In this document: in pieces, positions 752 to 46,896 of the stretch | Layout: each line of letters starts with the position of its first letter | How positions within the stretch are numbered: the first letter of the stretch is position 1 | Virus record (IMG/VR): IMGVR_UViG_3300021197_001203 | Location: 32,001 to 96,000 of that record | DNA length: 64,000 nucleotides | Direction: 5' to 3' (one strand) | Source of the DNA: a virus | Program-made: the position numbers and the translations under genes | The notes under the pieces: model-generated | What the model was told of the DNA's origin: nothing | The model's database searches: none | Seen by the model: the letters and a program-made list of their open reading frames with translations, nothing else

Positions 752-3067
752 TTAAGCGATTTTTCTGCCGCTTTGCGATTCTCGGATAGAGTTTTGTTGT
801 ATTACTCGGAATATGTCATCTAATGCTTGACCATGTTCCATGTAAGATGTGTTTTCGTTTTCTCTTCTGAAACACATCCGGCATCCCATTTCACCAGTCA
901 TTGGGTCAATATTCATGTCGCATTTTGTATCTGCACCGGGGAGTGATGCCGGACAAACCTGCTGCCGACTATTACCGCCAAAACCTTTCGGTGTTATCGT
1001 GCTTGTTGTAATTCCGGGGGATTCTAAAATCGAAGCGATGTCACCAACCCTGTCATTTCGTCCTTCTTTGCCCTTATACCACTCAGGTTCCTTGTCAATA
1101 GAAATCCTCATTGTTGCATTATCGGGCAAATGAGACTCTTGTGTCCCCCCTCTAGCCTCCATAGCCTCTCTTATGTATTGAGCTTGGCGTGAAGAAATCC
1201 AATGTTCTAAGTCTCGTAATTCTCTTGGGGTTTGTTGTTGTAGGAGATCGAAATAAGCTGAAACTTCACCGGGGCCTCTAAAATCTCCTGAAGCCTTTCC
1301 TCTAACATAACCCTTACCTGCAAGGTGTTTAGGCGCATTTCTTTTATTATTTGCGGTTTTCATCGCTTCAGAATACATTTCATTTTGCATGGCTGAAAGA
1401 TATTTAGGCATATCATTAAGAGAATTGTATAGATTACGGTGATATTTTCTTTGTGGGCCATTAAACGCCATTTTATTTTGAGCAGCATAACATATTTTAC
1501 AGGCCCCAGTTTTCATCGTACAAGCATGAACGGGCATATCCCCCAATGATATTCCGGGCATTTTACCGGGATTACCAAAGCCAGCCATTAACTTCGATTG
1601 TTTGTCGCTGCCCTCCCATGTTGGTATTTCCATCCCTTCTAAGGGATAATCCACTAGATTAGGGTTATCTTTGGGACCAGTGAGCTGTTGAACCTTTTCG
1701 GGGTATAGATTTATGAAATCAATTATATCTCTATTACCCCCCCCATACATCTGACCTTCAGGGCGTGGTGGGCCGTAATTTCCTTTTTTGTCTTTATTCC
1801 ACGGATATGGCACCGCATCCGGCAACTTACCACCGAACAGCTCTTCCCAAAAGAACATTTCACCGGGTTGCCCCCAGTGTTCTGAATCAAATACTGCTTT
1901 AACCAGCCCCCACGCATCTTCAAAGGTATTGTCTTCTGATAGATTAATGATCTGACCGAGCATTGCATTTTCTAATACGTCTCGGCCTGTATTGGTAAAA
2001 TCGCTTTCTCTAGCTAGAATACCATGAGTTGGGGTCACAAGACCCCGTTTCAAACCGAGTTTATCAGGATTGCTGCCTATATTCATAGGCACAGGAACTC
2101 CCTGATGCTTGAAACCTGATGAATCTCTATATGACGGCATTCTCCCTAACTCGTCTAATATTCTCATTATAGGGTCTATTGAGCCTGTCACTTTACTACT
2201 GTAAGGGACACCATCAGTGTGAACATCTGTATCTAAAGAACCAATACGATCACGCCAGTCATAATCATCAACATCTTCTCTATATTCCCTGTTATCAACA
2301 GAATATTTACCTTCTTTTGGGGTCAAATTGGGGTTTTTTGGTGTTGAGAAATCATAACCCACCATTATTAGAGGTCTGCCCGTTTCTTTATCCCAGCCCT
2401 GCATCGCCCCTTTCTTATCCCTGAAAAGGTCAACATCGTCCCCCCAATCTTGTAGCAACCGGGATTGGTCTAAACCTTCACCCAAAATATCAGATAATTC
2501 CCCGCGGCCTAGATTGCCGTGAACCCACATATGTTCATTTTTCTTACCATCGGCTTTTCTTTGACCATCAATTCTATGAGACCTAGACTGTGCGCCTCTC
2601 GATACATTAAATCTAGGGTCGTCTAAAGGGGTAGCATTAGAAGCCGCTAATGTTGTAAAACGCCCTTGTTTTTGAGGGTCTTCATCAAACCTTCTTTGTA
2701 ATGAGTGCATACCGCCTAAAGCTGGAAAATATTCACCACCAATTAAAGTAGGTGACGGAAGCGTATTACGTCCCGTAAATTGATTATTCCTAAACAAACG
2801 AGTGTTGTAGTCCCCAAAACGGTCTTTAGCAAACCGTGGTATAGCTAATCTGTCTCTCAATAATCGGCTCATACTCCTATGCGACCTTTTATCATCTAAT
2901 AAAGGATAAATAACTTCTCTAAGTGGATTTATTGTTGATTCTATACGGTCCACTGGGGTACGCTGCTGCCCCATTAACGCCCTAGTATTGAACCCATCAA
3001 TTGTAGCCCCGTCAAAGTCTAATGCAGTTTTCCAGCTCTTTTCAAAGAGACTGTCGTCACTGCCCAT
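752..3067 (-). CDS. bipartite protein: unknown N-terminal half plus C-terminal GP88-like (Cys-cluster, radical-SAM-like) domain; degenerate leader at the N-terminus and a full leader internally
   Basis: GNPGKMP..CTMKTGACKICYA..RGKASGDF..CPA..CRMC; FEKSW at the N-terminus; FEDAWGLVK at 1898-1924; start reassigned to ATG 3067. Confidence 0.65.
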   Translation of the reverse strand: MGSDDSLFEKSWKTALDFDGATIDGFNTRALMGQQRTPVDRIESTINPLREVIYPLLDDKRSHRSMSRLLRDRLAIPRFAKDRFGDYNTRLFRNNQFTGRNTLPSPTLIGGEYFPALGGMHSLQRRFDEDPQKQGRFTTLAASNATPLDDPRFNVSRGAQSRSHRIDGQRKADGKKNEHMWVHGNLGRGELSDILGEGLDQSRLLQDWGDDVDLFRDKKGAMQGWDKETGRPLIMVGYDFSTPKNPNLTPKEGKYSVDNREYREDVDDYDWRDRIGSLDTDVHTDGVPYSSKVTGSIDPIMRILDELGRMPSYRDSSGFKHQGVPVPMNIGSNPDKLGLKRGLVTPTHGILARESDFTNTGRDVLENAMLGQIINLSEDNTFEDAWGLVKAVFDSEHWGQPGEMFFWEELFGGKLPDAVPYPWNKDKKGNYGPPRPEGQMYGGGNRDIIDFINLYPEKVQQLTGPKDNPNLVDYPLEGMEIPTWEGSDKQSKLMAGFGNPGKMPGISLGDMPVHACTMKTGACKICYAAQNKMAFNGPQRKYHRNLYNSLNDMPKYLSAMQNEMYSEAMKTANNKRNAPKHLAGKGYVRGKASGDFRGPGEVSAYFDLLQQQTPRELRDLEHWISSRQAQYIREAMEARGGTQESHLPDNATMRISIDKEPEWYKGKEGRNDRVGDIASILESPGITTSTITPKGFGGNSRQQVCPASLPGADTKCDMNIDPMTGEMGCRMCFRRENENTSYMEHGQALDDIFRVIQQNSIRESQSGRKIA

Positions 3068-3140
3068 AGTGATACTAGGGCATACCATTCATCAAAAGTC
3101 TGCCGGACATTTATAGACGATTGCAGAACATAATATTCTT

Positions 3141-3227
3141 TGCAGGGGGGGCTATTCATTTGTCTCGTCCCATTTTTTTGACACACCCCTATTGGTAGGC
3201 TGCAACCTAAACCAACCCCCCCCTGCA
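3141..3227. repeat. 11-bp inverted repeat TGCAGGGGGGG / CCCCCCCTGCA with a 65-bp spacer, in a divergent intergenic region
   Basis: Arms read directly at 3141-3151 and 3217-3227. Confidence 0.7.
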
Positions 3228-3485
3228 CCTTCTAGTGCAGTTTGTTGATTTCATCAGCAATTTTTCCCAAAATATCAAAAACCTTCAAGGGAACGTACAA
3301 CACAAACAAGAAGGTGCCCACTATGAATAATAATAATAATTCTTTCAACATGGATTTAGAAGACATAAACAAAGCGCATACAATAGCATTTTTATTCTTT
3401 GCTGAGGATTATAACGCCAGCAATACAACTTTTGATTCTAGTTTTTATGATCATAGTTAATACTGATCGTAAGCTCAGACAAAGT

Positions 3486-4274
3486 ATGAAAAAACCTGCG
3501 AGGGTCACTAAACTAATACAAAAAACCAAAACATTAGACCCTTCAAATAACGAACCAGCCACGGTTTTAAGTGCAAATAAGGTCACTGGTTGGTCTTTGA
3601 ACTTCCCTATACAAAAGACCTGTCAGCCGTCTAAGCTGTGCATAGAAACCTGCTACTTCGCTTCAGGCATGACGACATGGACAAACTCGTTAAGGAAACA
3701 GCTATGGAATTACGAGTCTTGTGTCGAAGACCCAATTGCCTTTGCTGAAAACATAATATCTGAATATGATAAGAAAATAAAAGGTAAAACAGATTTCTTA
3801 AGATGGAACGGGGGCGGAGATTTGTTTTTTGAATCGACTGAAGCATTGAATTACATCGGTCAAACTAGACCCGACATAGTAATTTGGATAGTCACTAGAA
3901 GGCCCGATATGGCAAAAAGAATAGAGAACCATCCGAATCTCTATGTCCATTTCAGTCTTGATCGAGAATCTATGACTAGAAGAAAAACCGTACTGCCATT
4001 ATTAACCCCTGAAATGCGTAAAAGAGTATTCTTTTCGTATCAAACCGCAGCAGGTGAAGAGCCTGATATGACAAAATTGATTAAAGAGGGGGTAAAATTG
4101 TTCTTTTTTGATAATTATAGGGTGCCTTTAGGTACATATTGGGCAGTAAAAGAAGAAAAAGGGGCTAGATGGGATGCGTTGTGTCCACTCAATAAGATGA
4201 GAAGTGAAGGTAAAGACATAGAAGGTGCCTGTAATGCTTGTCGAAGATGTTTCGATGGTAGCTGGGAACAGTAG
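3486..4274 (+). CDS. GP88-like protein (Cys-cluster, radical-SAM-like)
   Basis: NKVTGWSLNFPIQKTCQPSKLCIETCYF..FLRWNGGGDLF..TRRP..FSLD..CPL..CNACRRCF; likely start ATG 3486. Confidence 0.7.
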   Translation: MKKPARVTKLIQKTKTLDPSNNEPATVLSANKVTGWSLNFPIQKTCQPSKLCIETCYFASGMTTWTNSLRKQLWNYESCVEDPIAFAENIISEYDKKIKGKTDFLRWNGGGDLFFESTEALNYIGQTRPDIVIWIVTRRPDMAKRIENHPNLYVHFSLDRESMTRRKTVLPLLTPEMRKRVFFSYQTAAGEEPDMTKLIKEGVKLFFFDNYRVPLGTYWAVKEEKGARWDALCPLNKMRSEGKDIEGACNACRRCFDGSWEQ

Positions 4275-4322
4275 TTGTCAGTCCTGACAGGTTTTTCTGA
4301 AAAATTGGGCGTGGCGATTTTT

Positions 4323-4682
4323 TCAGGGTGTGCGTCCAGCTCTTCTAAAGCGATCAATGAGTCCTTTTGAACCAAGAGCTTGGGATGTGCTATCAGGAAT
4401 TGATGGTCCCTGCATTGTATCAGTACGTGCATATTCAGAAGCTGGTTCATTGTCAAACATATCCTTGAGCCTTTCATACTCATCTTCAATACCATCATTA
4501 TCTGTTTCTAATATGTTAGCCATAACCTTTCGATTATGACTTTCACCGTCAGTTGTTGATTTCATATCTGCAAATCTTTTAGGAACAGGTCTGCCGCCTT
4601 CTTTGAGTGAATCCAGCTTACTATTAAACTTCTCACCGAAGTCAGCCTTAACCACATTCCATGCTTGATCAAATGTTGTCAT
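4323..4682 (-). CDS. leader-tagged hypothetical protein (MTTFDQAWNVVK)
   Basis: 119-aa ORF with the conserved leader. Confidence 0.8.
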   Translation of the reverse strand: MTTFDQAWNVVKADFGEKFNSKLDSLKEGGRPVPKRFADMKSTTDGESHNRKVMANILETDNDGIEDEYERLKDMFDNEPASEYARTDTMQGPSIPDSTSQALGSKGLIDRFRRAGRTP

Positions 4683-4683
4683 T

Positions 4684-5004
4684 CTATGACCTACCGTAGT
4701 ATTCTTCTTCTGAACCGGGGTGCATTTCGTTTAATGCGGCTTGTGCCCCAACAATCATATCTTCAACCTCTGACATTTCACCGCAGCATTGTTCTGCTAA
4801 TGTAGTTGCTTGGCTAAGTAGTCTGTGTAATTCCTGCACTTTTTTGCCCATGTCTTCCATAGGAGAGCCATCGCTGAGTTGTCCGTTTATTGAACCACTA
4901 AACTCATCTAATTCATCTATATCAATACCATACTGCTCAAGTGTTGCTGGGTCATACCCACCTGACTCTTTTGTTATGTTCCAAGCTTTATCAAATGAGG
5001 ACAT
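4684..5004 (-). CDS. leader-tagged acidic hypothetical protein (MSSFDKAWNITK)
   Basis: 106-aa ORF with the leader; AGGAGG RBS. Confidence 0.8.
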   Translation of the reverse strand: MSSFDKAWNITKESGGYDPATLEQYGIDIDELDEFSGSINGQLSDGSPMEDMGKKVQELHRLLSQATTLAEQCCGEMSEVEDMIVGAQAALNEMHPGSEEEYYGRS

Positions 5005-5075
5005 TATTTTTTCCTCCTGAATAGTAGTTTGCGTTCCAGTTTGCTAAACAATTTACGTGCTGCCCCTGAGACCAT
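5004..5075 (-). CDS. possible 23-aa basic peptide MVSGAARKLFSKLERKLLFRRKK
   Basis: Manual translation; TAATG coupling to 4684..5004. Confidence 0.35.
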   Translation of the reverse strand: MVSGAARKLFSKLERKLLFRRKK

Positions 5076-5112
5076 GTTAGTCTGTAATATTACTATCCTT
5101 TTTTACCTTTCA

Positions 5113-5502
5113 CTATATTTTCCGTGAAACAATGCCTCTTGATTTGATTTTTTTGGGTTTTGACCTTGATACCTCAGTTAAGGGATAACCATACCCCGTG
5201 GTTTTATCTTCTTTAGATTTAGAAGGAACCCGGTGGTTCTTTCTGTCCCTATCAAAATCTTGTTTGCTTTTGTATTTCTTAGGTTTACCCACCTTTGCGT
5301 GTCCTACTAACTCAGCTGGACCTTTACCAGTCCTTATTATGCCGACTTTTTGGCCGACATAGGAGTCAAGTGTGGGTTTTTTACGTGTTTCAACCTTCTT
5401 TTTACCTGATAATATCATATCAGTGTAAGGGACATCTTTGTCATTTATGTTAATTCCCATCTCTTTGACTAGCTGCCAAGCAGTTTCAAACTCGTAGCTC
5501 AT
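5113..5502 (-). CDS. leader-tagged ASCH-domain protein
   Basis: MSYEFETAWQLVK then PYTDMILSGKKKVETR (GxKxxExR ASCH motif) ... LVGHAKV. Confidence 0.75.
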   Translation of the reverse strand: MSYEFETAWQLVKEMGININDKDVPYTDMILSGKKKVETRKKPTLDSYVGQKVGIIRTGKGPAELVGHAKVGKPKKYKSKQDFDRDRKNHRVPSKSKEDKTTGYGYPLTEVSRSKPKKIKSRGIVSRKI

Positions 5503-5546
5503 TAGCTGGTTGGTGTTTTCGATCATAAATAAGTGATCTGTTAATA

Positions 5547-6410
5547 TTATATTCTTTTGGAAGGATAACGCCGAATCGTTTTATCTGCCATATTAGGGGT
5601 TGAGGGGGTCGTGAAATCGCCGAGGAATGAGCCGTCTGCATAGTAATCGAGCATTCTCATGCCTTCCGTTGAAGGATAGTTGGGTGCATGGTAATTACCG
5701 GGGCCTATGTCATTTGTGTTATCAGACCCAAAATAATATTCCAGCTCGTCCAAAAGCTGGGCATTGACCCCTCTTTTTCCTCCAAACTCAAAGCTAGTCT
5801 TTGGGTTGCTCTTGGCTTCCTCATACGCATCCCTCGCAAGCTGGTCCCACCAATTTTCAAGCTTGTCATCAAAGGCACTCGCATTTGCTTGTCTTCTTGT
5901 AAGAGGCCCTTGTAATATGACTCTTTCACGATTCGGCCACTTTCCCACGTATGCAGTTCGGTCCCATTCATGTCCAGTCCCTGCCCCTTGTGTGTATTGT
6001 GAATCTTGTCCCTTTAACCAGCTCATATCGACTCTAGGCATTTTCATAGCATTCACAGGAAGGCCATCCACAGTCATCTGTTCGGCTGGAAGAAGGTATT
6101 TCTCAGCAACGTCCGGCAGGACGTTCTTCATCCTGTCATATGTGAAAGCCTCCCAAAAATCGTCTTTTTTACCCGGAGATTCATCATTAAGCTGTTCTAA
6201 TAATCGCCTCCCTCCAGCATCCAAATTAGGTACTTTAGCCACAGAGCCGGGGTCGTCCCGAATGTCGAAGACCCTTCTTTGGCCTCCTTGATCAAATGCG
6301 TCTCCTAAGCCCAACTTTTCCGTAGCTATCCGAGAAAGCTCGGTCTCTCTTTCTAATGGGGTCGTATCGTCAAACTTAACTATCTCCCAAGCTTGGTCAA
6401 ATGCGGTCAT
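5547..6410 (-). CDS. leader-tagged protein-kinase-like protein
   Basis: MTAFDQAWEIVK; QGGQRRVF (Gly loop), VAKVP (VAIK-like Lys), DIGPGN (DxxxxN), LDY (DFG-like). Confidence 0.55.
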   Translation of the reverse strand: MTAFDQAWEIVKFDDTTPLERETELSRIATEKLGLGDAFDQGGQRRVFDIRDDPGSVAKVPNLDAGGRRLLEQLNDESPGKKDDFWEAFTYDRMKNVLPDVAEKYLLPAEQMTVDGLPVNAMKMPRVDMSWLKGQDSQYTQGAGTGHEWDRTAYVGKWPNRERVILQGPLTRRQANASAFDDKLENWWDQLARDAYEEAKSNPKTSFEFGGKRGVNAQLLDELEYYFGSDNTNDIGPGNYHAPNYPSTEGMRMLDYYADGSFLGDFTTPSTPNMADKTIRRYPSKRI

Positions 6411-6712
6411 TGATGGTCCTCCATCCTATTGTATCGCATCATTACCTCTTCGGGGGTAAGTCCTGAATCAGTCTCTGTATTTTCCCAATCCGTGTCACAC
6501 ACCCCACAACCACCCATTTTCGCACAGCAATCATTACAGATGTAATTTCCCGGTGTCCCACAGGCGTGTTCAGCCATACTATTCATACCGCACAACGGAC
6601 AAGGGGTATTTTCATTGTAAACGTCATCATCCTTCGACCTATCACGATTAGGGTCGATAGATATGGAAAAGTCCTCTTTTACAAGATTCCAAGCTCGATC
6701 AAAGGCGGTCAT
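6407..6712 (-). CDS. leader-tagged Cys-rich (Zn-finger) protein
   Basis: MTAFDRAWNLVK; CPLC..HAC..CNDCC..CGVC; ATGA overlap. Confidence 0.8.
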   Translation of the reverse strand: MTAFDRAWNLVKEDFSISIDPNRDRSKDDDVYNENTPCPLCGMNSMAEHACGTPGNYICNDCCAKMGGCGVCDTDWENTETDSGLTPEEVMMRYNRMEDHQ

Positions 6713-7101
6713 TCATAATCCTCCATTCTATCTCGGTATGCCTCATAGTCAATACCATATGTTCTTTTAGGGCCAACCGTACTACCGTTTTCAATTGCCT
6801 GATTAAGATCGAATGGCTTGCCATCTCCAAAGAAACCTTCAATCTCCATTGAATCAGACATTCGTTTATCAACCCACGGATGAATACATTTGCTACATAA
6901 TTTTGGAATACCCTCAACTATGTTGTTGATGTCGCTAAAACATCGCTCACATTCACTCGGCCAGTTTACACTTGGGTCGGGGTCAAGCGGTTCTTGAAGC
7001 AATAATTGGTTCTCATTCGCAATTCTTTGTATTTCTTCATCGGAAAACAACCGATGATATACGGACTTCACAATATCCCATGCTCGGTCAAATGCGGTCA
7101 T
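6709..7101 (-). CDS. leader-tagged Zn-finger protein
   Basis: MTAFDRAWDIVK; CERC..CSKC; ATGA overlap. Confidence 0.8.
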   Translation of the reverse strand: MTAFDRAWDIVKSVYHRLFSDEEIQRIANENQLLLQEPLDPDPSVNWPSECERCFSDINNIVEGIPKLCSKCIHPWVDKRMSDSMEIEGFFGDGKPFDLNQAIENGSTVGPKRTYGIDYEAYRDRMEDYE

Positions 7102-7721
7102 TGTTCCGCCCTCCTTTGCATTTCTTCAAGGCTCAATTCGGGCGAATGCCCTGTTTCATCGGGATCATCATCAAACCAAGCCAATCTTCTTTTTGGTCTA
7201 TCCACAGGCAGGTTTGCTCTTGCCAATGAATCAAGGTGTCCTCTTTCATAAGTCGGCCAATTTGTAGGTTCATTCACTTCAAAATCACTTTGATGCACCA
7301 ATTCTAAGAACTCCGGTGGTATGGTGACGTTTGAGAATAGGTGCGGTGAACCCCTGCCGTCATATCCTTCACGCATAGGGAATGATGGATCAATTCGTAT
7401 CATTGCAGGTGTAGCCACATCGTCTTGAATGTAGGGAACGCTAAGGTTTGGGTCACGCAGAAGATGAAGCCCTTGCTCATGCGCTCTTTTGCGTTGTGGC
7501 ATATTTGCTGCCATCATACCGTAAAGATTGGCAATGTTGGGATATGATGATGCGAACACCTTTGGCCCAGATCCGTATGTGTCTTTTCCTCCGATGAACT
7601 TGTTGCTATCCTCATACGTTCCGGGCTTCAATCCTTCACGCATTATGTTTTCAACACGATCTGATGTTGTTCCGTGATATGGCATCTTCACGATAGCCCA
7701 TGCGGTATCAAAGGCGGTCAT
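7098..7721 (-). CDS. leader-tagged ADP-ribosyltransferase-fold protein (Tpt1/PARP-like YHGT class)
   Basis: MTAFDTAWAIVK immediately followed by MPYHGTTSDRVENIMREGLKP..VFAS..A.LY..IPPEFL. Confidence 0.7.
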   Translation of the reverse strand: MTAFDTAWAIVKMPYHGTTSDRVENIMREGLKPGTYEDSNKFIGGKDTYGSGPKVFASSYPNIANLYGMMAANMPQRKRAHEQGLHLLRDPNLSVPYIQDDVATPAMIRIDPSFPMREGYDGRGSPHLFSNVTIPPEFLELVHQSDFEVNEPTNWPTYERGHLDSLARANLPVDRPKRRLAWFDDDPDETGHSPELSLEEMQRRAEQ

Positions 7722-8008
7722 TCCATGCCCTCCAATTCATCGTTCAGATTCAATTCAACCATAGCATCAGGATTTTCCCACCATTCAGTCAATTGTTTGG
7801 CAAACTCATTCGCTATCGAAGGCGACATCGTTTTTATGAAATTGAAAAATTGTTGCATATCTCCTAATCTCTTTGCATACATATCTGATTCATTGATGAT
7901 AGAAAGCATGGAAGCATTATCCGCGTTTCGTTTTCTGAGGAAGTTAATCTGCATCTCATAGTGTGGTGAGTTTTTCACCAAATCCCATGCTCGGTCAAAT
8001 GCGGTCAT
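7718..8008 (-). CDS. leader-tagged hypothetical protein (MTAFDRAWDLVK)
   Basis: 96-aa ORF; GGTGA RBS. Confidence 0.8.
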   Translation of the reverse strand: MTAFDRAWDLVKNSPHYEMQINFLRKRNADNASMLSIINESDMYAKRLGDMQQFFNFIKTMSPSIANEFAKQLTEWWENPDAMVELNLNDELEGME

Positions 8009-8093
8009 TTCGTCACCACTATCCTACAACATGAACCATCGATCACCCTAAGATTACCCAAAGCATTCCCACAATTAGGGCAATAAGATTTAC

Positions 8094-9551
8094 TCATGAG
8101 GCAATCATCCTCGCATACCACGGCATTTGTTCTAATTCACTTGGAGGAACTACCCAGCGTGTCATGTCGCCTTCTCCACCCTGACCTCTAAATTGATGGA
8201 GATTGTTTTTGTTTGCTAAGTTCCTAGCCAAATTAGACCCTCTTTCAACCCCCTCGTACCCTTTGTCAGCGATAAATTGTTCCATAAAATTAGATGTGAC
8301 TCCGGGGACATTTGACACTACTAAAGATTCAGGCTTGATTGCTTTGCCCGCTGTTTTCTGACTCCCAGCTCTATTTACCTGAGCGTTCTGAAGCTTGTCG
8401 TGTCGAGCCATCAATATACTCAGGGGCAAACCACGCTCATTTATTGCATCTATAACTGGTTTTGTTGCGCTATTGTAAGTAAATGTGGGTGTCCCCTGTT
8501 CAGCCAACTCTTTGTGTTTGTCATAAACATCACCAGTCAATTCATCTGACCATACGTGCTGACCTTTTTCGCCTCCGCCATAAGGGGGGTCTTGGCCTAC
8601 TATATCTTTGTCAGCTGCAATATCAGCCCTGTCATAAAAATCACTAAAGTCATCGTTTGTAAATGCCCAGTTTTCCATTATCTTAGACCACGGACTAACA
8701 TCCCACGGGTCCATCTCTAAGTTCCCTCCACCTGAGAAAAGATTCAGACCCTGAGCTGAAAAGATAGGACCTGTTTCAAGATCAGACCTACCAAACTTCC
8801 TGTCCCCGGTTTCGGCTTCAAGAAAATCAGCAGCTCTTTGTGCATAGGAGGGAGTCAATTTACCCCCAGCATAGGACTGTTTTGCCCCCGGTGCCGAATT
8901 AACAAGACCCCTACTATTTGTCCTCCAAATACTGTTATAGACTCCCCTACTTAACCCCAAAATATTTCTCATCAATTCCTGTTTTTCTTGGGTACTAAGA
9001 TTTCCTGAACGATAATCGGGTAATTTTTGATTTACCGTTGCTCTTAATTCATTGACCCTTTGGGGCATATATACCCCATCTTCAAATACAGAATTAGGAT
9101 TTAGTTTTCTAGCCTCTTCTATATCCGCAGCTGTAATTTCAGGTAGCGTGTGCAACAACTCAGAACCTTGATTCGGCGAAGAAAACAAACGAGGCTCATC
9201 ACCTACTCTATACAAAATATCTTTTGGATCGAATGCTAATGCTTCGGGGTTATCTCTCATCATTTCATTCATATCAACTAAAAGCTGGTCCTTATCATTA
9301 CCAAAATAACCCTCTTCAGCTCTAACCGCTAAGGGGACAGCCAAGCTACCCATAAACGGTTCAACCAATCTGCGGCCAGTGGTACCCCCGCCGCCTCTTC
9401 TTGACTTACCATACAGATAAGCATTGATCGCACGATACATCGGGTCGTCTTTGTTGCCAGCTACTTTGTAGGCTGGAGGCGCAGCTGTGTTATACTTCAG
9501 CGCGTTTAGAATCTGCTGCATAGCAGGATGGGATTTGCGAAGACTAGCCAT
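8094..9551 (-). CDS. Dam-like (D12 class) N6-adenine DNA methyltransferase
   Basis: YKVAGNK, LVEPFMGSLAV (motif I), ND, YN.IWRTNSRGLVN, DPPY (motif IV); start ATG 9551 after GGTGA. Confidence 0.8.
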   Translation of the reverse strand: MASLRKSHPAMQQILNALKYNTAAPPAYKVAGNKDDPMYRAINAYLYGKSRRGGGGTTGRRLVEPFMGSLAVPLAVRAEEGYFGNDKDQLLVDMNEMMRDNPEALAFDPKDILYRVGDEPRLFSSPNQGSELLHTLPEITAADIEEARKLNPNSVFEDGVYMPQRVNELRATVNQKLPDYRSGNLSTQEKQELMRNILGLSRGVYNSIWRTNSRGLVNSAPGAKQSYAGGKLTPSYAQRAADFLEAETGDRKFGRSDLETGPIFSAQGLNLFSGGGNLEMDPWDVSPWSKIMENWAFTNDDFSDFYDRADIAADKDIVGQDPPYGGGEKGQHVWSDELTGDVYDKHKELAEQGTPTFTYNSATKPVIDAINERGLPLSILMARHDKLQNAQVNRAGSQKTAGKAIKPESLVVSNVPGVTSNFMEQFIADKGYEGVERGSNLARNLANKNNLHQFRGQGGEGDMTRWVVPPSELEQMPWYARMIAS

Positions 9552-9553
9552 GA

Positions 9554-10444
9554 TCACCACTGTGGTTTCCCATAGGGTTTTACCCATTTTTCACAAGTCG
9601 TACAATATTTGTCATTCCATTCCCCTCTTGCTAGATTTAGATTGCCATCGCAATATGGACAAGTTTTTTGCTGCCTTTTGGAAATTATGGAAAATGATTT
9701 ACGAAGTTTTCTTTTATTATCCATCATTTGATGGTATCTAGCCAAAGCGGGATGCCACTGCGCCCTTGCTAAAGGATTCGGGTTCGGCATCAAACGTCTA
9801 TCATCCACAGCTGCATTTATGCCCATTCTTGCTAAATGCTGGTCCTGTTCCAATTTCCTGTCTCGTTTTCCTGAAGAATCCGTTATAGGGTCAATCTCAC
9901 CCAAAGTCGCTGCATATTCCTCTTGGTAATCATCTAACCTCTCTTCTTGAGATATTCCCGAAGAAGATAATGCCTGATGTATTGCCTCATGAGAAGCTAT
10001 CTCATTCATCCGGCTACCCCAACTAATGTCCTCATCCTCAGTCAAATCTCGGTCTAAGTCATCAATATTTTCCATTCCTAATATCTGAGCTAATACCTTT
10101 TCAGGATGGTTTCTAGCTGAATAAGGGCCTCTCCACTTGAGGGGGGCATAATTATCGCCACGCTCATTTGTCGCAATTCCGGTTTCTTTTAACCGTCTAA
10201 GCGGGCCAGCACTTGTTGTTTGACCTAAAGCACCCCCATGAGGTGCCTCTTCGCCCCAATCATCTAAGTAATCAGAAGTCCCTATTCTTGATTCAAGTTC
10301 TTCTTCTGAAGGGTCTCTTGTTGACGTTTCCCAATTGCTAGTCGTCAACGTGCTGGGTGCAGGAAAGCCAAATCTTGTCGGTGTTCTAGGATATGAAATC
10401 CTTGCCTTTACCAACTCCCAAGAGCTATCAAAGGCATCCGCCAT
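9554..10444 (-). CDS. leader-tagged zincin metallopeptidase-like protein with C-terminal Zn ribbon
   Basis: MADAFDSSWELVK; HEAIH..EEY; CPYC..CTTC. Confidence 0.65.
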   Translation of the reverse strand: MADAFDSSWELVKARISYPRTPTRFGFPAPSTLTTSNWETSTRDPSEEELESRIGTSDYLDDWGEEAPHGGALGQTTSAGPLRRLKETGIATNERGDNYAPLKWRGPYSARNHPEKVLAQILGMENIDDLDRDLTEDEDISWGSRMNEIASHEAIHQALSSSGISQEERLDDYQEEYAATLGEIDPITDSSGKRDRKLEQDQHLARMGINAAVDDRRLMPNPNPLARAQWHPALARYHQMMDNKRKLRKSFSIISKRQQKTCPYCDGNLNLARGEWNDKYCTTCEKWVKPYGKPQW

Positions 10445-10450
10445 GTATGT

Positions 10451-10621
10451 TCACTCTTTACCATCCTTCTTTTGCTTTACCATTATCTCGGTCCAAGCAT
10501 GACTATGTAAATCGTCCATCAGCTTACGTTGTGTTTCTAAATAATCACGCCATATCGGTTTCCGATTAGACTTCTCCATTTCCTCTAATTGAATATCCCA
10601 ATACTCTTCGGTCATACTCAT
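10451..10621 (-). CDS. small hypothetical protein (MSMTEEYW...)
   Basis: ORF track entry; start moved to ATG 10621 just after the upstream stop. Confidence 0.6.
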   Translation of the reverse strand: MSMTEEYWDIQLEEMEKSNRKPIWRDYLETQRKLMDDLHSHAWTEIMVKQKKDGKE

Positions 10622-10622
10622 A

Positions 10623-10706
10623 TTACTCTTCCCAATCTTCAAATGATTCTGTCATAAATGCTTGCCACATTTTACAAGCACCATTGTGATGTTTTCTATC
10701 TTTCAT
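10623..10706 (-). CDS. 27-aa micropeptide MKDRKHHNGACKMWQAFMTESFEDWEE
   Basis: GGAGG RBS; ATGA overlap with the upstream peptide. Confidence 0.55.
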   Translation of the reverse strand: MKDRKHHNGACKMWQAFMTESFEDWEE

Positions 10707-10786
10707 TGTATTCCTCCTTTTCTAGTTGCTACCCAAAACCAAAAGGTATGAGAAACCGACCAAAACCACTTATCTAGCTTGCTCAT
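10703..10786 (-). CDS. 27-aa Trp-rich micropeptide MSKLDKWFWSVSHTFWFWVATRKGGIQ
   Basis: GAGG RBS; ATGA overlap with the next ORF. Confidence 0.5.
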   Translation of the reverse strand: MSKLDKWFWSVSHTFWFWVATRKGGIQ

Positions 10787-10966
10787 TGTTTGCCTCATCG
10801 ATCAAAGTAAGGGTGAGGTGGCATATTTGCGTGGCGACAATTACAAAGAATGTATTGACATAAAACATCGCCATTTCCAATTTTATTGGTTGAGAAACTA
10901 TGCTTTCTAGTATCACGGTCTCCAACATGGTGTAAAAATTACACCGATTGTATTAATCTTTTTTGG

Positions 10967-11191
10967 TTATTTTTTCCAAAATCTATCCTCTAATTGCCTT
11001 TTCTCTCTTAACCGCTTCCTTGCTGCGGCCTTTGCACGACCCCTGCCAGCAGTACCGTCTCTCCTACGCTGGCTCTTTTCCTTGAGATAACATTTACCAC
11101 ACATACGCTGAAGCTCACTGGTCTGTTCACCGATCCCATTTGCCCTGCGATTAAACTCTCCACAGGTCGGACATCGGCGGGCCGAAGACAT
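10967..11191 (-). CDS. basic Zn-finger protein
   Basis: CPTC..CGKC followed by an Arg/Lys-rich tail. Confidence 0.6.
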   Translation of the reverse strand: MSSARRCPTCGEFNRRANGIGEQTSELQRMCGKCYLKEKSQRRRDGTAGRGRAKAAARKRLREKRQLEDRFWKK

Positions 11192-11221
11192 AAATCGAAT
11201 AAAAAGTGTTAATTATTTAAC

Positions 11222-11404
11222 TTAACGGCTTTTTTTGTCGCTTTGAACTTGAACTCGCACATCTTGTGCGGTTCCCTTGATAGATTGCATAGCCACACGA
11301 ACTCTTGTTCCAGCTGCGCCATTACCTCTATCGTGCTTCTCAGCATCTGCGAGGGCGTTTTCTAGTTTTGTCATCATTCCTTTGATCATATCTGCAACAG
11401 ACAT
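11222..11404 (-). CDS. Hc1-like (histone H1-like protein N-terminal domain) small protein
   Basis: DAEKHDRGNGAAGTRVRVAMQSIK matches the Hc1 GNxAAxxRxR signature; leaderless start with a TATA-like element upstream. Confidence 0.7.
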   Translation of the reverse strand: MSVADMIKGMMTKLENALADAEKHDRGNGAAGTRVRVAMQSIKGTAQDVRVQVQSDKKSR

Positions 11405-11479
11405 GACACGGGTGCGAATCCTGTTAGTTATAACAATTGTTGTGAAATAAGGGCATATACCCCCTATTTAGAGGTATAA

Positions 11480-12097
11480 TTAGCAATTCCATCTATCAAG
11501 AGCTGCGCCCTTTGGTGTTTTCTTGCCTTCTTTGCTGGTTGGACCCTTAACCCCACCCATTCTAGCGCAGAATGATTTACGCCTCTTTGCCTTCTTACTG
11601 TCAGGGTTGAGGGTTGATGGCTTCTCGGTCACTGGTGGTTTCAGGTTAGCACCTTCTTCACGCTTTGCTTTAGCTCGACCCTTAGCATTCAATCCACCTT
11701 CTTTGCTGTGTTTGTTAGGATTGTAGCCATGAAACGGTTTGTCATCCTTTTTCTCAAGAATATTATTGATCGAAACACAAATACCACAATTACAGGTTTT
11801 AGTCAGCTTGTCCCAGTTCTTCTTGTCAGGGTAGTCCTTGTCTCCGGGTTTAGCTGCCTTCTCGCCTCTTTTCTTTTTGGCGTGAACATTATCCCAAAGA
11901 CCACGTTTGCCTTTATCCATGTAAGTCATACTCTTTTCGATTTCATCCTCCTGATTTGCTGAAACACAAGTATAACAACTGTGTTTACCCAAATCATCCA
12001 TACCGTGAGCAGGGTCGCCACAATAATGACAATCAGGGCCTTCTCCCTCATACGGCCATTCTTTCAAGACACCCCAAGCCTTGTCGAATGCGGTCAT
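11480..12097 (-). CDS. leader-tagged multi-module basic protein with C-terminal DUF6321-like domain
   Basis: MTAFDKAWGVLK; CHYC..CYTC; GLWDNVHAKKKRGEK; GGLNAKGR..LKPPV..RRKSFCARM..WNC. Confidence 0.75.
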   Translation of the reverse strand: MTAFDKAWGVLKEWPYEGEGPDCHYCGDPAHGMDDLGKHSCYTCVSANQEDEIEKSMTYMDKGKRGLWDNVHAKKKRGEKAAKPGDKDYPDKKNWDKLTKTCNCGICVSINNILEKKDDKPFHGYNPNKHSKEGGLNAKGRAKAKREEGANLKPPVTEKPSTLNPDSKKAKRRKSFCARMGGVKGPTSKEGKKTPKGAALDRWNC

Positions 12098-12468
12098 TCC
12101 ATGTCCTCCGGCATACCATTATTGAAAAATCCCTGTAATATGTTCTGAAGGTAGGTATCAGCAGCAGCATCGTCATCTTGGTATTCATTATTCAATTCTG
12201 AGATACCCGTTTCTTGTTCTGATAATGAAGGCCCGTGATCTGCACAATAATATCCTGTGTCGCTACCAAAAAGCCCTTCCCATGAGGCTATATCGCCACA
12301 ACCGGGATGCTCACACATGGGATAATCCTCGTCATCATAATCATTACTGTCAATTTTGAACCATGATGGTGTTTTTTGATTCCACGGCAGGGGACCACCC
12401 TCATCATCGTGAGTCCTCCCTTCGATTGTGTTTTTCACCAAATCCCATGCTTCATCAAATGCGGTCAT
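12094..12468 (-). CDS. leader-tagged acidic Zn-finger protein
   Basis: True start ATG 12468 (MTAFDEAWDLVK); CEHPGC..YCADH. Confidence 0.8.
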   Translation of the reverse strand: MTAFDEAWDLVKNTIEGRTHDDEGGPLPWNQKTPSWFKIDSNDYDDEDYPMCEHPGCGDIASWEGLFGSDTGYYCADHGPSLSEQETGISELNNEYQDDDAAADTYLQNILQGFFNNGMPEDME

Positions 12469-12469
12469 C

Positions 12470-12757
12470 TTACTCAATCCTTCCTCGATCCTTGTAGCAC
12501 CCTTTACAAAAGGCATTACCTTGCTTTGATTCGTAGCTTATGTTTTCATCGTTAAACTCTTTACCGCACAGCTGGCATTCATTACCTGCATAGCCGCCCG
12601 GACCCATCTTGACAATGTTCCAAGCTCGGTCAAAAGATTTCTTTACGTCTTTCGCAGCATAACAAGGACACTTAGGCTCAGTCTTAGAGCATTTCATGAT
12701 GCCCTGCTTCATACAAGCACAAGGGTTAGACTTGGTGGCCCCGCAACAGCAGCCCAC
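12470..12757 (-). CDS. Cys-rich (metallothionein-like) protein with an internal leader motif
   Basis: MGCCCG..CAC..C..CPC then KSFDRAWNIVK then CQLC..CKGC. Confidence 0.7.
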   Translation of the reverse strand: MGCCCGATKSNPCACMKQGIMKCSKTEPKCPCYAAKDVKKSFDRAWNIVKMGPGGYAGNECQLCGKEFNDENISYESKQGNAFCKGCYKDRGRIE

Positions 12758-13162
12758 TTACATCAAGCCTCGTAGCATATCCATGAGCTTAATTTTGTCA
12801 AGAGTCCCATAAATGTCTTCACCTTCGTAATCACCCATGAAATCAGGGGCTAGTGGTTCGTATGGACCGCCTTCATAATGTCGGTCGAATAATTCAGACA
12901 TATCAGGACGGTCTTTCGTATATTGAGCGTAAGGACCCGCTTCGGTCCCATCATATCCTATATCTCGATAAACTTCAGGGTCTGACATCAACATTTCAAT
13001 CATAGGAACCATACTAGCTGGTACTTCCATAGTCACCATCCCTCCTTCTATGTCTTGGGCTATTGATTGTTGATCTGCAAAAACATCTTCATCTGTTCTG
13101 CTTAACTCTTTATTAACGACATTCCAGCTTTGCTCAAAAACAAAATCTTCGGCATCCGACAT
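12758..13162 (-). CDS. acidic hypothetical protein with a degenerate leader (MSDAEDFVFEQSWNVVNK)
   Basis: Start reassigned to ATG 13162; the upstream extension in the track is non-coding A-tract DNA. Confidence 0.7.
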   Translation of the reverse strand: MSDAEDFVFEQSWNVVNKELSRTDEDVFADQQSIAQDIEGGMVTMEVPASMVPMIEMLMSDPEVYRDIGYDGTEAGPYAQYTKDRPDMSELFDRHYEGGPYEPLAPDFMGDYEGEDIYGTLDKIKLMDMLRGLM

Positions 13163-13189
13163 ATCACACGCCACGGTACCATCGTTAAT

Positions 13190-13945
13190 AGAATTGTCGA
13201 AAAAAAATACCCCGAAAAAAAATACCCGAATATACTCCAAAAACACAGGTTTTTTCGATCAAAATGCCACCATGACAGCCCTGACAAAAAAATATCAGAA
13301 AAATCGCCGAGCTGCGTATGCGGTGAGGCGGGCGCAGCCCGCCAAAAAAAAAAAAAATATCGGCACCGAAGCCTAGCCATTGCTCAATGGGTGTGGCGGG
13401 CTAACCACCATTCACCAATGCCATTGCCCAGCCCCATTCAATAGCTAAACCCATTCGATCAGACCAGCTTGAGAACACATTGGTGAATGGCTGGGCTGAA
13501 ACGCCCAGCAACACACCCATTCAAGCCTAAATCTAGGGCTATTGACGGCTATCTGAGGCCATTCACGCCCATCCAGCCCACCGTATATCATTCGGGCTGG
13601 TTGCATTGGTCAATGAGGCCACATTGACACGCCATTCACCCATTCGCCAATCCCATTGACCAATGCCCAGCCAAAGCGCAGATGTTCGTGATATAATGAA
13701 AGTGGGTTATTGGGATAGGTGTCTTAGGTTGGCTGGACGAAAAGAGCATACTGCGGGCTTATCGAGACACGTATGACACGATGGACAGACACAATATACT
13801 ACTTTTACAAAGAACGATTTAATTATACTCTGATTTAGAGTATTATAGAGAGGCTGTCCAGTGTCCAACGTGGGTTTTGTCCTATGTTATCGATGTCTGT
13901 TAGAAACAGCCTAGAAAGGGGTGTTTAGGCTGGTTTGACCAACAG
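13190..13945. other. non-coding divergence region with A-tracts, iterated CCATT motifs and inverted repeats; candidate genome end/packaging site or origin
   Basis: No credible ORF; strand switch; about 10 NCCATT copies at 13376-13660; inverted repeats flanking an AT-rich core. Confidence 0.55.
13198..13227 (+). repeat. tandem 15-bp direct repeat CGAAAAAAAATACCC x2
   Basis: Read directly. Confidence 0.85.
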
Positions 13946-13948
13946 TGC

Positions 13949-13997
13949 TTAAGTAGGGTGTTCAACCCCGTAGGGGTATGTAGTCCGATGTGGCTAC
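13949..13997 (+). promoter_or_regulatory. early promoter class A (TTAAGTAGGGTG) plus 5' hairpin
   Basis: Motif recurs at 20859, 26502 and 27807 upstream of plus-strand operons. Confidence 0.6.
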
Positions 13998-14018
13998 GAT
14001 TAAATGGAAGTGTAAAAT

Positions 14019-46258: not shown

Positions 46259-46896
46259 TGGACATCACCTACATTTAACATCAATTCAGGGTCAATGTCT
46301 AGCAGCTGTTCTTGATCGTACTGCCCTCTTAAGGGCATACCTTGTAAAATAAGCTGTCTTTGCATATCAGGGAAGTAATTTGATGATAGTTCAATAGGGA
46401 CAGGGACGTTTCCTAAGAGTTGAAGTATAGCCATCATCCTGTGTCTGCCTTCATGCCCCACAATATCTCTTGATTGAGACACTTTGCCCAAAGTAGTATC
46501 GTTATTTGATGCAATTCTTAGATTGGGGATATAAGTAGGCTTGCCCTCTTTCATTCCCTGTATAATATTTTCTGTACGAGGGTTTTTTTGTTTCTTCTTC
46601 TTATCCCACCACATATAGTCCTGTAATACGCTGCCGTACATTTGTTCACCTTTATGATTCCCTTTTATTGGAGAGGTGAGCCTGAGATAGTCCTGTGGCT
46701 TCATCATGGTCTTAGTATGGTAGCTTCCAAAAACCGGACTCCCCCCCATCGGATAATAATTCGTTTCTCCATCTATGCCGGGTTCTCGCCAGCTTCTGCC
46801 CTTGTCGTTTTCTTCTTTATCCCAAAACTCCGTAGGGCCGACTTTGTATGTAGCCATTTTGACTAATGCCCAACCATGTTGAAAGGCATCGCTCAT
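46255..46896 (-). CDS. leader-tagged ParB/Srx-like protein
   Basis: True start ATG 46896 (MSDAFQHGWALVK); MKPQDYLRL; P.L; GHEGRHRMMA..VPI. Confidence 0.65.
   Translation of the reverse strand: MSDAFQHGWALVKMATYKVGPTEFWDKEENDKGRSWREPGIDGETNYYPMGGSPVFGSYHTKTMMKPQDYLRLTSPIKGNHKGEQMYGSVLQDYMWWDKKKKQKNPRTENIIQGMKEGKPTYIPNLRIASNNDTTLGKVSQSRDIVGHEGRHRMMAILQLLGNVPVPIELSSNYFPDMQRQLILQGMPLRGQYDQEQLLDIDPELMLNVGDVQ

Follow-up and report, generated by a model that had tools for sequence, protein, structure and literature searches.

We found that a leader of 12 residues, with the consensus M-T-A-F-D-x-A-W-x-[LIV]-[VL]-K (MTAFDxAWxxVK), starts about one in six genes (~17%) of a 108-kb virus, on proteins that are otherwise unrelated. 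These residues form a short N-terminal helix of amphipathic character, one face of which holds the Phe, Ala, and Trp residues and the two aliphatic residues. We propose that it may serve as a virion (capsid) address tag of a T4-like kind, by which proteins are loaded into the capsid and then trimmed, and we hold this reading to be nearly, if not quite, probable. To our knowledge, no such shared leader has been described in an archaeal virus.

The virus encodes a chaperonin, and its capsid protein shares 32 to 33% identity with the HCTV-1 and HVTV-1 capsid proteins. A 106-kb contig in a Poseidoniales single-cell assembly carries a capsid protein 88% identical to that of the virus, together with 17 leaders. 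Magroviruses have been described by their association with marine group II archaea, a genome of ~100 kb whose replication block encodes a chaperonin, and a capsid protein ~33% identical to halovirus capsid proteins (PMC5434244). Judged by these genomic features, the virus can be assigned to the magroviruses of Poseidoniales, with a head module related to that of haloarchaeal siphoviruses. No PolB was found by Pfam among the ORFs tested.

The back-translated motif had 15 exact matches in the window (the whole 64-kb stretch of DNA that was analyzed), all on the minus strand, against 0.15 ± 0.41 expected from 100 shuffles, which excludes a chance origin of the leader copies. Across the 108,315-bp genome there were 18 matches on the minus strand and 0 on the plus strand, and a reversed control pattern gave 0. 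In a genome scan with a leader HMM, ~20 true copies stood sharply apart from noise, and no copy was found in the capsid protein, the protease, the portal, the terminase, or any plus-strand gene. Neither the motif scan nor the HMM scan detected a copy in the replication genes, and the restriction to one strand described in the initial annotation of this DNA was confirmed. All 13 of the leader starts that it had listed were recovered as well (4682, 5004, 5502, 6410, 6712, 7101, 7721, 8008, 10444, 12097, 12468, 46258, and 46896), each on the minus strand with F-[DEQ]-x-[ASG]-W-x3-K within 2 to 4 codons of the start codon, as were two internal copies (1898-1924 and 12608-12634). The two degenerate leaders that it had placed at 3067 and 13162 are real but weak, with 5.6 bits at 13162 and a position below the HMM list for 3067. 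The ATG stood exactly 3 codons before the leader Phe in 235 of 345 hits. The tagged ORFs had been called mutually unrelated, with a similarity that stops after the final Lys; consistent with this, the cargo bodies of 15 proteins of this genome fell into 15 different BLAST clusters, and past the Lys there was only a weak preference for [AM] and then [PD].

Leftward transcription from an iteron-rich, divergent intergenic region (13163..14018) would reach the main array as its first block. This region separates the array from the replication genes and contains many CCATTCA/CCCATTC-type repeats. Its sequence makes it a possible origin and promoter region; the replication genes diverge from it as well, and the position of the array beside it is also typical of early genes. 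The genes described here are on the minus strand unless stated otherwise. The first array gene (12758..13162; 134 aa) bears the degenerate leader MSDAEDFVFEQSWNVVN (...FVFEQSWNVVN), in which Asn replaces the Lys. A 95-aa Cys-rich protein (12470..12757) has its internal leader, at 12608-12634, between two Cys-rich segments. Tagged proteins then include a 124-aa Cys-rich/acidic protein (12094..12468; leader MTAFDEAWDLVK, found by motif and HMM), a 205-aa protein with a C-terminal DUF6321 domain (11480..12097; PF19846, E value = 3.9e-17), and a 296-aa protein with the leader MADAFDSSWELVK and an HExxH string (9554..10444). The array member at 8094..9587, a 497-aa D12-class N6-adenine DNA methyltransferase, is untagged, whereas a D12 methyltransferase does carry the leader in relatives. 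Further tagged proteins have lengths of 96 aa (7718..8008; HMM, 31.3 bits), 207 aa (7098..7721), 130 aa (6709..7101; motif and HMM), 101 aa (6407..6712; Cys-rich and zinc-ribbon-like; HMM, 31.9 bits), 287 aa (5547..6410; no family match), 129 aa (5113..5502; leader MSYEFETAWQLVK), 106 aa (4684..5004; acidic; motif and HMM), and 119 aa (4323..4682; motif and HMM). An untagged GP88-family paralogue (3399..4274; Pfam E value = 3.5e-21) lies inside the array on the plus strand.

Fusions and a second leader subtype were also found. A 778-aa fusion protein (752..3088) has a degenerate SDD-type leader near its N terminus (start 3067), which reads MGSDDSLFEKSWKTAL and lacks the final Lys; its internal leader (1898-1924) is ~120 residues upstream of a GP88-like domain at residues 506 to 684 (Pfam PF17338, E value = 1.2e-9). 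A tagged 594-aa protein (44474..46258; GTG start, TDPFDEAWEMTK) ends the tail-side gene block, and a tagged 213-aa protein (46255..46896) carries the second subtype, MSDAFQHGWALVK. The domain labels given in the initial annotation fared unevenly. DUF6321 and GP88 were upheld by Pfam and the ADP-ribosyltransferase (ART)-like fold by AF2 and Foldseek, and the "C5-MTase" label of the 594-aa protein corresponded to a weak PHROG DNA-methyltransferase match (phrog_116, E value = 7.9e-5). Searches of Pfam, PHROGs, and PDB sequences gave no support for the kinase-like (287-aa protein), ASCH (129-aa protein), zincin-family (296-aa protein), or ParB-like (213-aa protein) labels. The interpretation given in the initial annotation is partly supported: its broader proposal, in which exchangeable cargo would bear a removable targeting signal, fits every test that could be applied.

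Structure modeling supports an ADP-ribosyltransferase-superfamily fold, closest to Tpt1/KptA, for the 207-aa cargo. The AF2 model had a mean pLDDT of 69.5, and its top Foldseek hits were almost all members of the superfamily (Tpt1/KptA, pertussis toxin S1, tankyrase, and Arr; E values of 1e-3 to 1e-1, TM scores of 0.3 to 0.36); a profile search reached Tpt1 at an E value of 0.2. In the model, the leader is a helix (residues 3 to 11), the first core strand runs from residue 15, and the ART core begins 2 to 3 residues past the leader Lys. The His of YHGT was invariant in a 15-sequence alignment of the family, in which no invariant Arg or Glu was found when the H-Y-E, R-S-E, and Tpt1 Arg-His-Arg-Arg sets were sought; the window's copy reads IRID, and the other aligned sequences read LEID. 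In a search of 5.8 billion proteins, homologues of this cargo kept the tag in 11 of 11 clusters.

We then considered the leader across a survey set of ~50 related IMG/VR contigs and the Poseidoniales single-cell assembly. The 660 kb of related loci encoded 275 distinct tagged proteins, which formed 124 BLAST clusters (79 of them singletons), and only 8 of 115 cluster representatives had a Pfam match. Cargo types included ART-like proteins, methyltransferases, a nuclease, GNAT-like proteins, zinc-ribbon proteins, and small basic proteins, and GP88 was often itself a tagged cargo. The leader F, W, and K were invariant, and the D and A nearly so, even between proteins whose bodies were 10 to 30% identical. 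Every synonymous codon was used at the same time, with pairs of the same residue sharing a codon only 0.34 to 0.62 of the time. This codon pattern indicates that the leader is under selection at the protein level. The initial annotation had weighed its proposal against a purely nucleotide-level conservation, from which the variation of synonymous codons and the retention of the leader by ART-like homologues both depart. The survey also yielded ~15 truly internal leader copies, including four leaders in one 691-aa ORF, a pattern not expected of a targeting peptide that acts only at the N terminus.

In relatives, tagged genes held fixed positions within the head module. Genes for tagged small basic proteins immediately followed the portal gene (L105, 3010-3330; L090, 1750-1947), tagged genes reading (M/L)P[ST]DDIFDQAW.. 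with bodies of 306 to 590 aa immediately preceded TerL, and a tagged zinc ribbon lay ~3.3 kb after the capsid gene. Related haloviruses have the same head module but lack the leader.

The leader end ([LIV][VL]K|[AM][PD]) recurred at the N-terminal boundary of the capsid protein and at invariant sites of the S78 protease-scaffold linker. With a PSSM built from the leader ends of other genomes, the best match in a real non-leader gene was to capsid protein residues 34 to 39 (DLLK|AD). The tblastn match to the halovirus capsid protein starts at query residues 34 to 37, and the HVTV-1 capsid protein reads MSK|AD at the corresponding place (two sequences compared by eye). Six of the 24 top non-leader hits fell in the capsid protein and the protease, which make up 2.5% of the residues, and 0 of 150 column-permuted PSSMs reached 6 hits there; the motif being short and defined after the data had been seen, this control corresponds to a P value of roughly <0.01 and not more. 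The protease-scaffold linker was hypervariable, with the exception of a pair of invariant GNxxVIK motifs and of an ILKM, likewise invariant, at the end of the S78 domain, where HVTV-1 has VVSK|AD. The head protease itself matched Peptidase_S78 (HK97 type; E value = 4.2e-10). The likeness of the leader end to these conserved hydrophobic-hydrophobic-Lys sites, which are presumed protease sites, lends indirect support to the proposed cleavage after the leader Lys.

As a capsid address tag, the leader would bring accessory proteins with nothing else in common to one shared docking site, on either the scaffold or the inner shell of the procapsid during its assembly, and the HK97-type (S78) prohead protease would then remove it by cutting after the Lys. 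The trimmed payload (ART-like enzymes, DNA methyltransferases, nuclease, zinc-ribbon, and small basic proteins) would remain in the head and enter the next Poseidoniales cell together with the DNA, while the tag-coding DNA doubles as a homology patch for cassette swaps between virus strains. We infer the docking, cleavage, packaging, and injection of the tagged proteins and, from domain types, an anti-defense role that the payload may have; the fit to a T4-like capsid-targeting tag is circumstantial. Several observations speak against the address tag: 18 tagged proteins per genome, some of 590 to 778 aa, would be a heavy cargo list, leaders also occur internally, the main array has a position that early genes often take, and the related haloviruses lack the leader. 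A fuller version, which we put forward tentatively as a minority possibility, is plug-and-play delivery in an abundant clade of marine archaeal viruses, with a 12-residue ticket to the capsid, clipping by S78 after the Lys, and coding DNA that acts as the recombination joint of effector cassettes. If this were true, each virion would bring into Poseidoniales cells at least a dozen enzymes (ART-like, methyltransferases, nuclease, and GNAT-like) in a combination particular to its strain, and archaeal viruses would gain their first described capsid-targeting signal along with their first described arsenal of injected effectors.

The internal proteins of T-even phages are diverse defense proteins with only a capsid targeting sequence (CTS) in common, through which they are loaded on the scaffolding core (PMC3012670). 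The leader resembles the T4 CTS (IPI to IPIII and Alt) as a short N-terminal peptide (~10 to 12 residues) on unrelated, fast-evolving, defense-related proteins, and similarity stops at the tag in both, as found here in sequence. Moreover, the packaged ADP-ribosyltransferase Alt parallels our ART-like candidate cargo, and removal of the tag by the prohead protease is proposed here by analogy. The T4 tag reads MKTYQEFIAE, to which the leader has no sequence similarity. The protease here is HK97-type S78 rather than T4 gp21-type, the proposed cut follows Lys rather than Glu, the host is archaeal, ~17% of genes are tagged compared with a handful in T4, and internal and multiple tags are present. 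Methyltransferase, ART, peptidase-like, and nuclease domains are also delivered with the virion in P1 DarA, DarB, Hdf, and Ulx and in polyvalent MuF-linked proteins. Such a domain mix would act at entry, as the candidate cargo of our virus would; loading in those systems depends on assembly order or a MuF/portal-binding fusion, not on a common 12-residue tag. The tagged proteins do not conform to the polyvalent or MuF-linked type, as they are mostly separate genes with a few multi-leader fusions and gave no match to MuF in domain searches. The cargo-loading peptides of encapsulins similarly dock unrelated cargo inside an HK97-fold shell, as is proposed here, but are usually C-terminal, are uncleaved, belong to cellular nanocompartments, and have no sequence relation to the leader. 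The leader sequence also differs from the huge-phage N-terminal sequences MNRYDIALGKKP, MNWYK.., MKRYI.., and MEMxIALAA.

The same helix might instead dock to a common partner outside the capsid. This could be a host protein or complex, for example RNA polymerase, the replisome, or a defense hub, or else a hub of the virus, its chaperonin being one candidate. Diverse effectors would thereby be gathered at a single site during infection, and the tagged genes would serve early host takeover. An F-x3-W-x2-[LV] pattern on one helix face, which the leader has, is typical of short helical docking motifs. The main array adjoins the iteron-rich region from which the replication genes diverge, the tagged cargo resembles enzymes and effectors, and a binding motif readily tolerates internal and multiple copies. 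We nevertheless consider a noncapsid partner unlikely. It leaves unexplained the fixed head-module positions relative to the portal, TerL, and capsid genes, the absence of the tag from the replication block, and the match of the leader end to conserved capsid-protein and protease sites; furthermore, the host genome is nearly without the motif (2 hits in ~1.1 Mb of Poseidoniales sequence outside the viral contig of the single-cell assembly).

An explanation at the level of DNA, in which a shared stretch of ~36 nt at each gene start allows accessory genes to be swapped between strains or lost through homologous recombination and the peptide is a tolerated by-product or an aid to translation start in a tightly coupled operon, draws on the population contigs. 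These join leader to leader: one joint, 7074->7982, shares 28 letters and extends over 108 letters on its shorter side, there are weaker joints at 6715->7980 and 7724->12449, and contigs part from the reference at the gene starts 7102, 8009/8010, and 12097 and at 12445, just past a leader. Leader codons are also skewed relative to those of the bodies (ACC, 70% versus 22%; GAC, 75% versus 29%), and an orthologue 88% identical to the ART-like cargo bears a different leader subtype. Since leader codon usage is unlike that of the bodies and contigs break and join exactly at leaders, DNA-level exchange adds to the uniformity of the leader. As its whole explanation, however, a cassette boundary is improbable: synonymous sites are far from fixed while the F, W, and K are invariant, leaders stay intact inside fused ORFs where neither start codon nor boundary is needed, and neither an amphipathic helix nor invariant aromatic residues in it would be needed for a recombination patch. 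A genome-wide avoidance of CCWGG (0 observed versus ~110 expected), which forbids GCC before TGG, accounts for part of the codon skew. We regard as very improbable a role of the leader in recognition by a noncapsid modifying or processing enzyme of the virus or host (RiPP-like, a timed degron, or cytoplasmic proteolytic activation). The W-x3-K and F-x3-W spacing would suit a cross-link or cleavage site, and Cys-cluster GP88-family genes occur inside or at the end of arrays, but GP88 is often tagged cargo itself, an untagged GP88 was present in 4 of 59 loci (partial loci), and the cargo consists of large folded proteins rather than peptides. No untagged enzyme gene lay consistently beside the arrays in the 59 partial loci, which argues against a RiPP-like leader with a dedicated maturase; the only constant neighbors were a 48-aa ribbon-helix-helix-like protein and a membrane protein.

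We scanned the window in six frames for F-[DEQ]-x-[ASG]-W-x3-[KR], the core of the leader (the 12-residue N-terminal helix, MTAFDxAWxxVK, shared by otherwise unrelated proteins), and obtained 17 strict matches, all on the minus strand. The back-translated DNA pattern matched the window 15 times, against 0.15 ± 0.41 matches expected from 100 dinucleotide-preserving shuffles. The window spans bases 32001-96000 of an IMG/VR record of 108,315 bp that is rated 100% complete; across this whole record, the pattern matched 18 times on the minus strand and never on the plus strand (reversed control pattern, 0 matches). A profile HMM built from 217 leaders of related viruses and run on the genome's stop-to-stop ORFs parted about 20 true copies sharply from noise, and with it the plus-strand genes gave no leader, nor did the genes for the major capsid protein, prohead protease, portal, and terminase. 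The initial annotation, made from the sequence alone, had likewise seen none in the plus-strand early/replication genes; all 13 of the leader starts that it named were correct (the one at window position 46258 is a GTG codon), both of its internal copies are present in the window, and the two copies that it called degenerate are recognisable, if weak. These results confirm the leader and enlarge the observation considerably.

The minus-strand block at genome positions 1-45,246 encodes the major capsid protein (genome 8793-9959), a Peptidase_S78 prohead protease that continues into a coiled-coil C-terminal region (genome 9999-11321), a 1137-aa protein lying between protease and portal (genome 11379-14792; like the protease, in locus L067, outside the window), the portal (genome 16922-18715), TerL (genome 20008-21378), a membrane-protein cluster, and the array, which is the main block of leader-tagged genes (genome 32752-45246). 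Replication and repair genes, including a helicase, a Sak4-like protein, a PD-(D/E)XK nuclease, a PAPS-reductase-like protein, and a chaperonin, occupy the plus strand at genome 46,019-76,508, and giant tail-side proteins follow on the minus strand at genome 76,474-108,188, the last two genes of this block being leader tagged. In its capsid protein, the virus shares 32 to 33% identity with the haloarchaeal siphoviruses HCTV-1 and HVTV-1. Such likeness is part of the reported magrovirus signature (PMC5434244), which further includes a genome size near 100 kb and a chaperonin encoded among the replication genes; this virus has all three. Published magroviruses all encode a B-family DNA polymerase; none was detected with Pfam in the large plus-strand ORFs tested (window 14019-20599), and the first plus-strand gene (1238 aa) had no family match. 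Among prokaryote assemblies, the leader pattern turned up solely in a Poseidoniales single-cell genome. One of its contigs, 106 kb long, has 17 leaders, all on the same strand, and encodes a capsid protein with 88% identity to that of this virus; the remainder of the assembly has 2 pattern matches. The HVTV-1 genome has none.

Searching with the pattern ATG-ACN-GCN-TTY-GAY-NNN-GCN-TGG-..-GTN-AAR recovered 58 stretches on about 50 IMG/VR contigs, and these related loci together with this genome (660 kb) held 345 motif matches. The ATG lay exactly three codons 5' of the Phe in 235 of the 345; many of the 51 matches that appeared non-N-terminal simply use TTG or GTG starts, leaving about 15 that are truly internal. 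As a consensus, the leader reads M-T-A-F-D-x-A-W-x-[LIV]-[VL]-K; a weak [AM]-[PD] preference comes next, beyond which no similarity is left, in agreement with the earlier reading that similarity ends after the leader. A second subtype reads M-[SA]-D-A-F-[DQ]-x-[SG]-W, and a longer one, P-[ST]-D-D-I-F-D-Q-A-W, always adjoins TerL. In every leader-bearing contig tested, the capsid protein was at least 79% identical to that of this virus, so that the leader so far marks one tight clade; the long contigs of the same capsid clade that were scanned each gave 9 to 15 pattern matches, nearly all on one strand.

The proteins behind the leader are diverse. The 275 distinct N-terminally tagged proteins (cargo length, median 144 aa, maximum 674 aa) fell into 124 BLAST clusters, 79 of them singletons, and the 15 from this genome fell into 15 separate clusters. 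Pfam matches were found for only 8 of 115 cluster representatives, the families among tagged cargo being GP88, D12 methyltransferase, C5 methyltransferase, HTH_38, two zinc ribbons, GH-E nuclease, and DUF7249; by eye, further large clusters resemble another ART-like family, of YHAT type, a GNAT-like family with an R-G-x-G-Y-A motif, and very basic proteins of small size. We modelled a 207-aa cargo protein (window 7098-7721) from a 15-sequence alignment (mean pLDDT, 69.5). In the model, the leader forms a helix at residues 3 to 11, with confidence below that of the core, whose first strand begins at residue 15. Its top Foldseek matches belong almost all to the ADP-ribosyltransferase superfamily (Tpt1/KptA, pertussis toxin S1, tankyrase, and Arr; E values, 1e-3 to 1e-1), and a profile search against PDB points to Tpt1 (E value = 0.2). 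The model and matches support the ADP-ribosyltransferase-like fold named in the initial annotation, and the protein is a putative enzyme. All 11 of its homologue clusters among 5.8 billion proteins carry the leader. Among the other domain labels first given to the cargo, DUF6321 and GP88 held up, whereas kinase-like, ASCH, zincin-family, and ParB-like were left unsupported by Pfam, PHROGs, and PDB sequence searches: the kinase-like and HExxH proteins had no PHROGs match, the ASCH protein had only weak PHROGs matches to unannotated families (E values, 0.006 to 0.009), and the 213-aa ParB-like protein had nothing usable in a PDB sequence search (best E value = 0.34). The 594-aa protein labelled a C5 methyltransferase gave only a weak DNA-methyltransferase match and no PDB sequence match, and the tagged 581-aa protein next to TerL gave no usable match in an Atlas search.

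In relatives, tagged genes also occupy fixed positions within the head module. One or two small basic tagged genes begin right at the portal stop codon (locus L105, 3010-3330; locus L090, 1750-1947 and 2716-3024), and the gene directly upstream of TerL always bears the long subtype on a body of 306 to 590 aa. Some 3.3 kb downstream of the capsid gene there is a tagged gene for a zinc-ribbon protein, at genome base 6676 in this genome. The 1137-aa protein gave no PHROG match and may be a large internal head protein; at the equivalent place, HVTV-1 has a 1313-aa protein annotated as a zeta toxin. The protease-scaffold protein has a long, variable acidic linker, a coiled coil, and an invariant terminal amphipathic helix (..MGxDLDGWRAxExLARRALRGE), which is probably the capsid-docking end of the scaffold. 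In an alignment of 20 relatives, an invariant I-L-K-M closes the S78 domain, and the linker is hypervariable and gap rich, with two invariant G-N-x-x-V-I-K motifs. We considered whether the terminal helix is itself a leader copy and set the idea aside: it has a small residue followed by Trp, but the spacing differs, and the resemblance is unproven.

In HK97, the protease cleavage site in the capsid protein lies behind Lys103, on the boundary of the delta domain, and this would fit a cut after Lys. In the capsid protein of this clade, D-L-L-K-A-D is invariant at residues 34 to 39, and the halovirus capsid tblastn alignment starts at about this site. By reading, M-S-K-A-D stands at the equivalent position of the HVTV-1 capsid protein, preceded there by an N-terminal extension of some 100 residues, and the HVTV-1 protease has V-V-S-K-A-D just past the protease domain. 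We built a PSSM from positions +5 to +10 at the leader ends of other genomes, in a test designed after the motif had been seen. Of its matches in this genome's real non-leader genes, the capsid protein site was the best, and 6 of the top 24 non-leader matches lay in the capsid protein and protease, which make up 2.5% of residues; among 150 column-permuted PSSMs, the highest count was 5. The match between the leader end and these presumed protease sites is suggestive. An AF2 model of the capsid protein was unusable (mean pLDDT, 30.7), the alignment being too shallow at 78 to 89% identity. The best-supported mechanism, to which we nevertheless give somewhat less than an even chance, is that the leader would be a capsid address tag, loading its cargo and then being trimmed after Lys by the HK97-type protease, with its DNA serving a second role as a cassette junction. 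In T-even phages, internal proteins that are diverse defence proteins have only a capsid targeting sequence in common, and it is this sequence that brings them onto the scaffolding core (PMC3012670). Both systems feature a short tag common to otherwise diverse proteins, and in kind the leader would be a variant of the T4 capsid-targeting principle.

If the leader were mainly a recombination or translation boundary, its DNA should be what matters, and there is evidence for exchange at that DNA. Runs from 7 studies contain 31-mers of the array. Public marine runs hold contigs in which one leader is joined to another (7074 to 7982, with 28 shared letters, plus two weaker joints); contigs also leave the reference at the leader-gene starts 7102, 8009/8010, and 12097, and at 12445, just past a leader. 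Moreover, an 88%-identical orthologue of the ART-like cargo bears the other leader subtype. The joints and this swap indicate that leader DNA doubles as a cassette junction. The peptide is nonetheless under selection: conserved leader positions use all synonymous codons, pairs with the same residue share a codon at a rate of only 0.34 to 0.62, and F, W, and K are invariant in leaders on bodies 10 to 30% identical. Synonymous variation rules out purely nucleotide-level conservation, and we consider a mainly boundary role improbable. Codon choice in the leader is skewed relative to gene bodies, and genome-wide site avoidance accounts for part of this. CCWGG (CCAGG plus CCTGG) is absent from the 108-kb genome against about 110 copies expected under a maximal-order Markov model, and GATC stands at about half its whole-genome expectation (213 versus 415). 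The absence of CCWGG looks like strong restriction-site avoidance and would point to a CCWGG-specific host system; owing to it, the Ala before Trp is never encoded by GCC. The preference for GAC in the leader holds whichever base comes next, and a contribution from shared ancestry or gene conversion therefore remains.

Other features fit loading less neatly. Leftward from an 856-bp intergenic region (window 13163-14018), the array is the first block to be read, diverging there from the replication genes. This region, packed with CCATTCA, CCCATTC, and CCATTGA repeats and holding two GGGTATTTTTTTTCG repeats that adjoin the array, looks like a candidate replication origin with divergent promoters, and early genes often adjoin such regions. 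In two metatranscriptome runs, the array and early genes alike appeared only as small contig pieces, which give no expression ranking or timing. The truly internal leaders mostly follow S-x-D-x, as in GDFTASGDV-FEDAW. A related virus has a 691-aa ORF (locus L038, 7411-9480, minus strand) that is a natural multi-tag polyprotein, with one N-terminal leader and three internal ones that each follow S-G-D-[VS] and separate repeated modules of about 150 aa with a CC motif. Under loading, the internal leaders would be additional docking and cutting sites within a polyprotein; a binding motif would need no special pleading for them. A docking helix for a partner other than the capsid is a competing reading, which we rate as unlikely when set beside the head-module genes and the presumed protease sites. 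Recognition of the leader by another modifying or processing enzyme seems very unlikely: co-occurrence in 59 partial loci revealed no constant enzyme neighbour, and a radical-SAM or maturase partner was rejected on this ground.

To our knowledge, no such leader has been described for any archaeal virus, and almost nothing is known of how Poseidoniales viruses gain control of their host cells. Were the leader a packaging tag, it would label the entire delivered payload from sequence, more than 120 protein families that are almost all unannotated, would carry the T4 capsid-targeting principle over to archaea and to an HK97-type protease, and would give a concrete experimental handle; it could also become a tool to load foreign proteins into archaeal virus capsids. 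Even without packaging, a 12-residue tag on one sixth of the genes demands a common partner, whose identification would be informative. The magrovirus papers searched (PMC5434244 and PMC11706807) mention neither a shared leader nor an N-terminal motif, and the leader appears to be undescribed for magroviruses as far as searchable literature goes.

Two GP88-family (PF17338) paralogues lie at the end of the array, a tagged one on the minus strand (window 752-3088), with its leader about 120 residues upstream of the domain, and an untagged one on the plus strand (window 3399-4274), for which a PDB sequence search gave nothing usable (best E value = 0.34). Both carry non-canonical Cys clusters, C-x6-C-x2-C and C-x5-C-x3-C, and we found no literature on PF17338. 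Within the array, a 60-aa minus-strand protein without a leader (window 11222-11404) matches the chlamydial histone H1-like protein Hc1 (PF07432, E value = 9.8e-15), a bacterial family unexpected in an archaeal virus, and is kept in three related loci. Finally, a 48-aa protein that by eye is ribbon-helix-helix-like (window 550-696, minus strand) and a 155-aa membrane protein (window 83-550, minus strand) together consistently border the leader array on its downstream side in 14 related loci.
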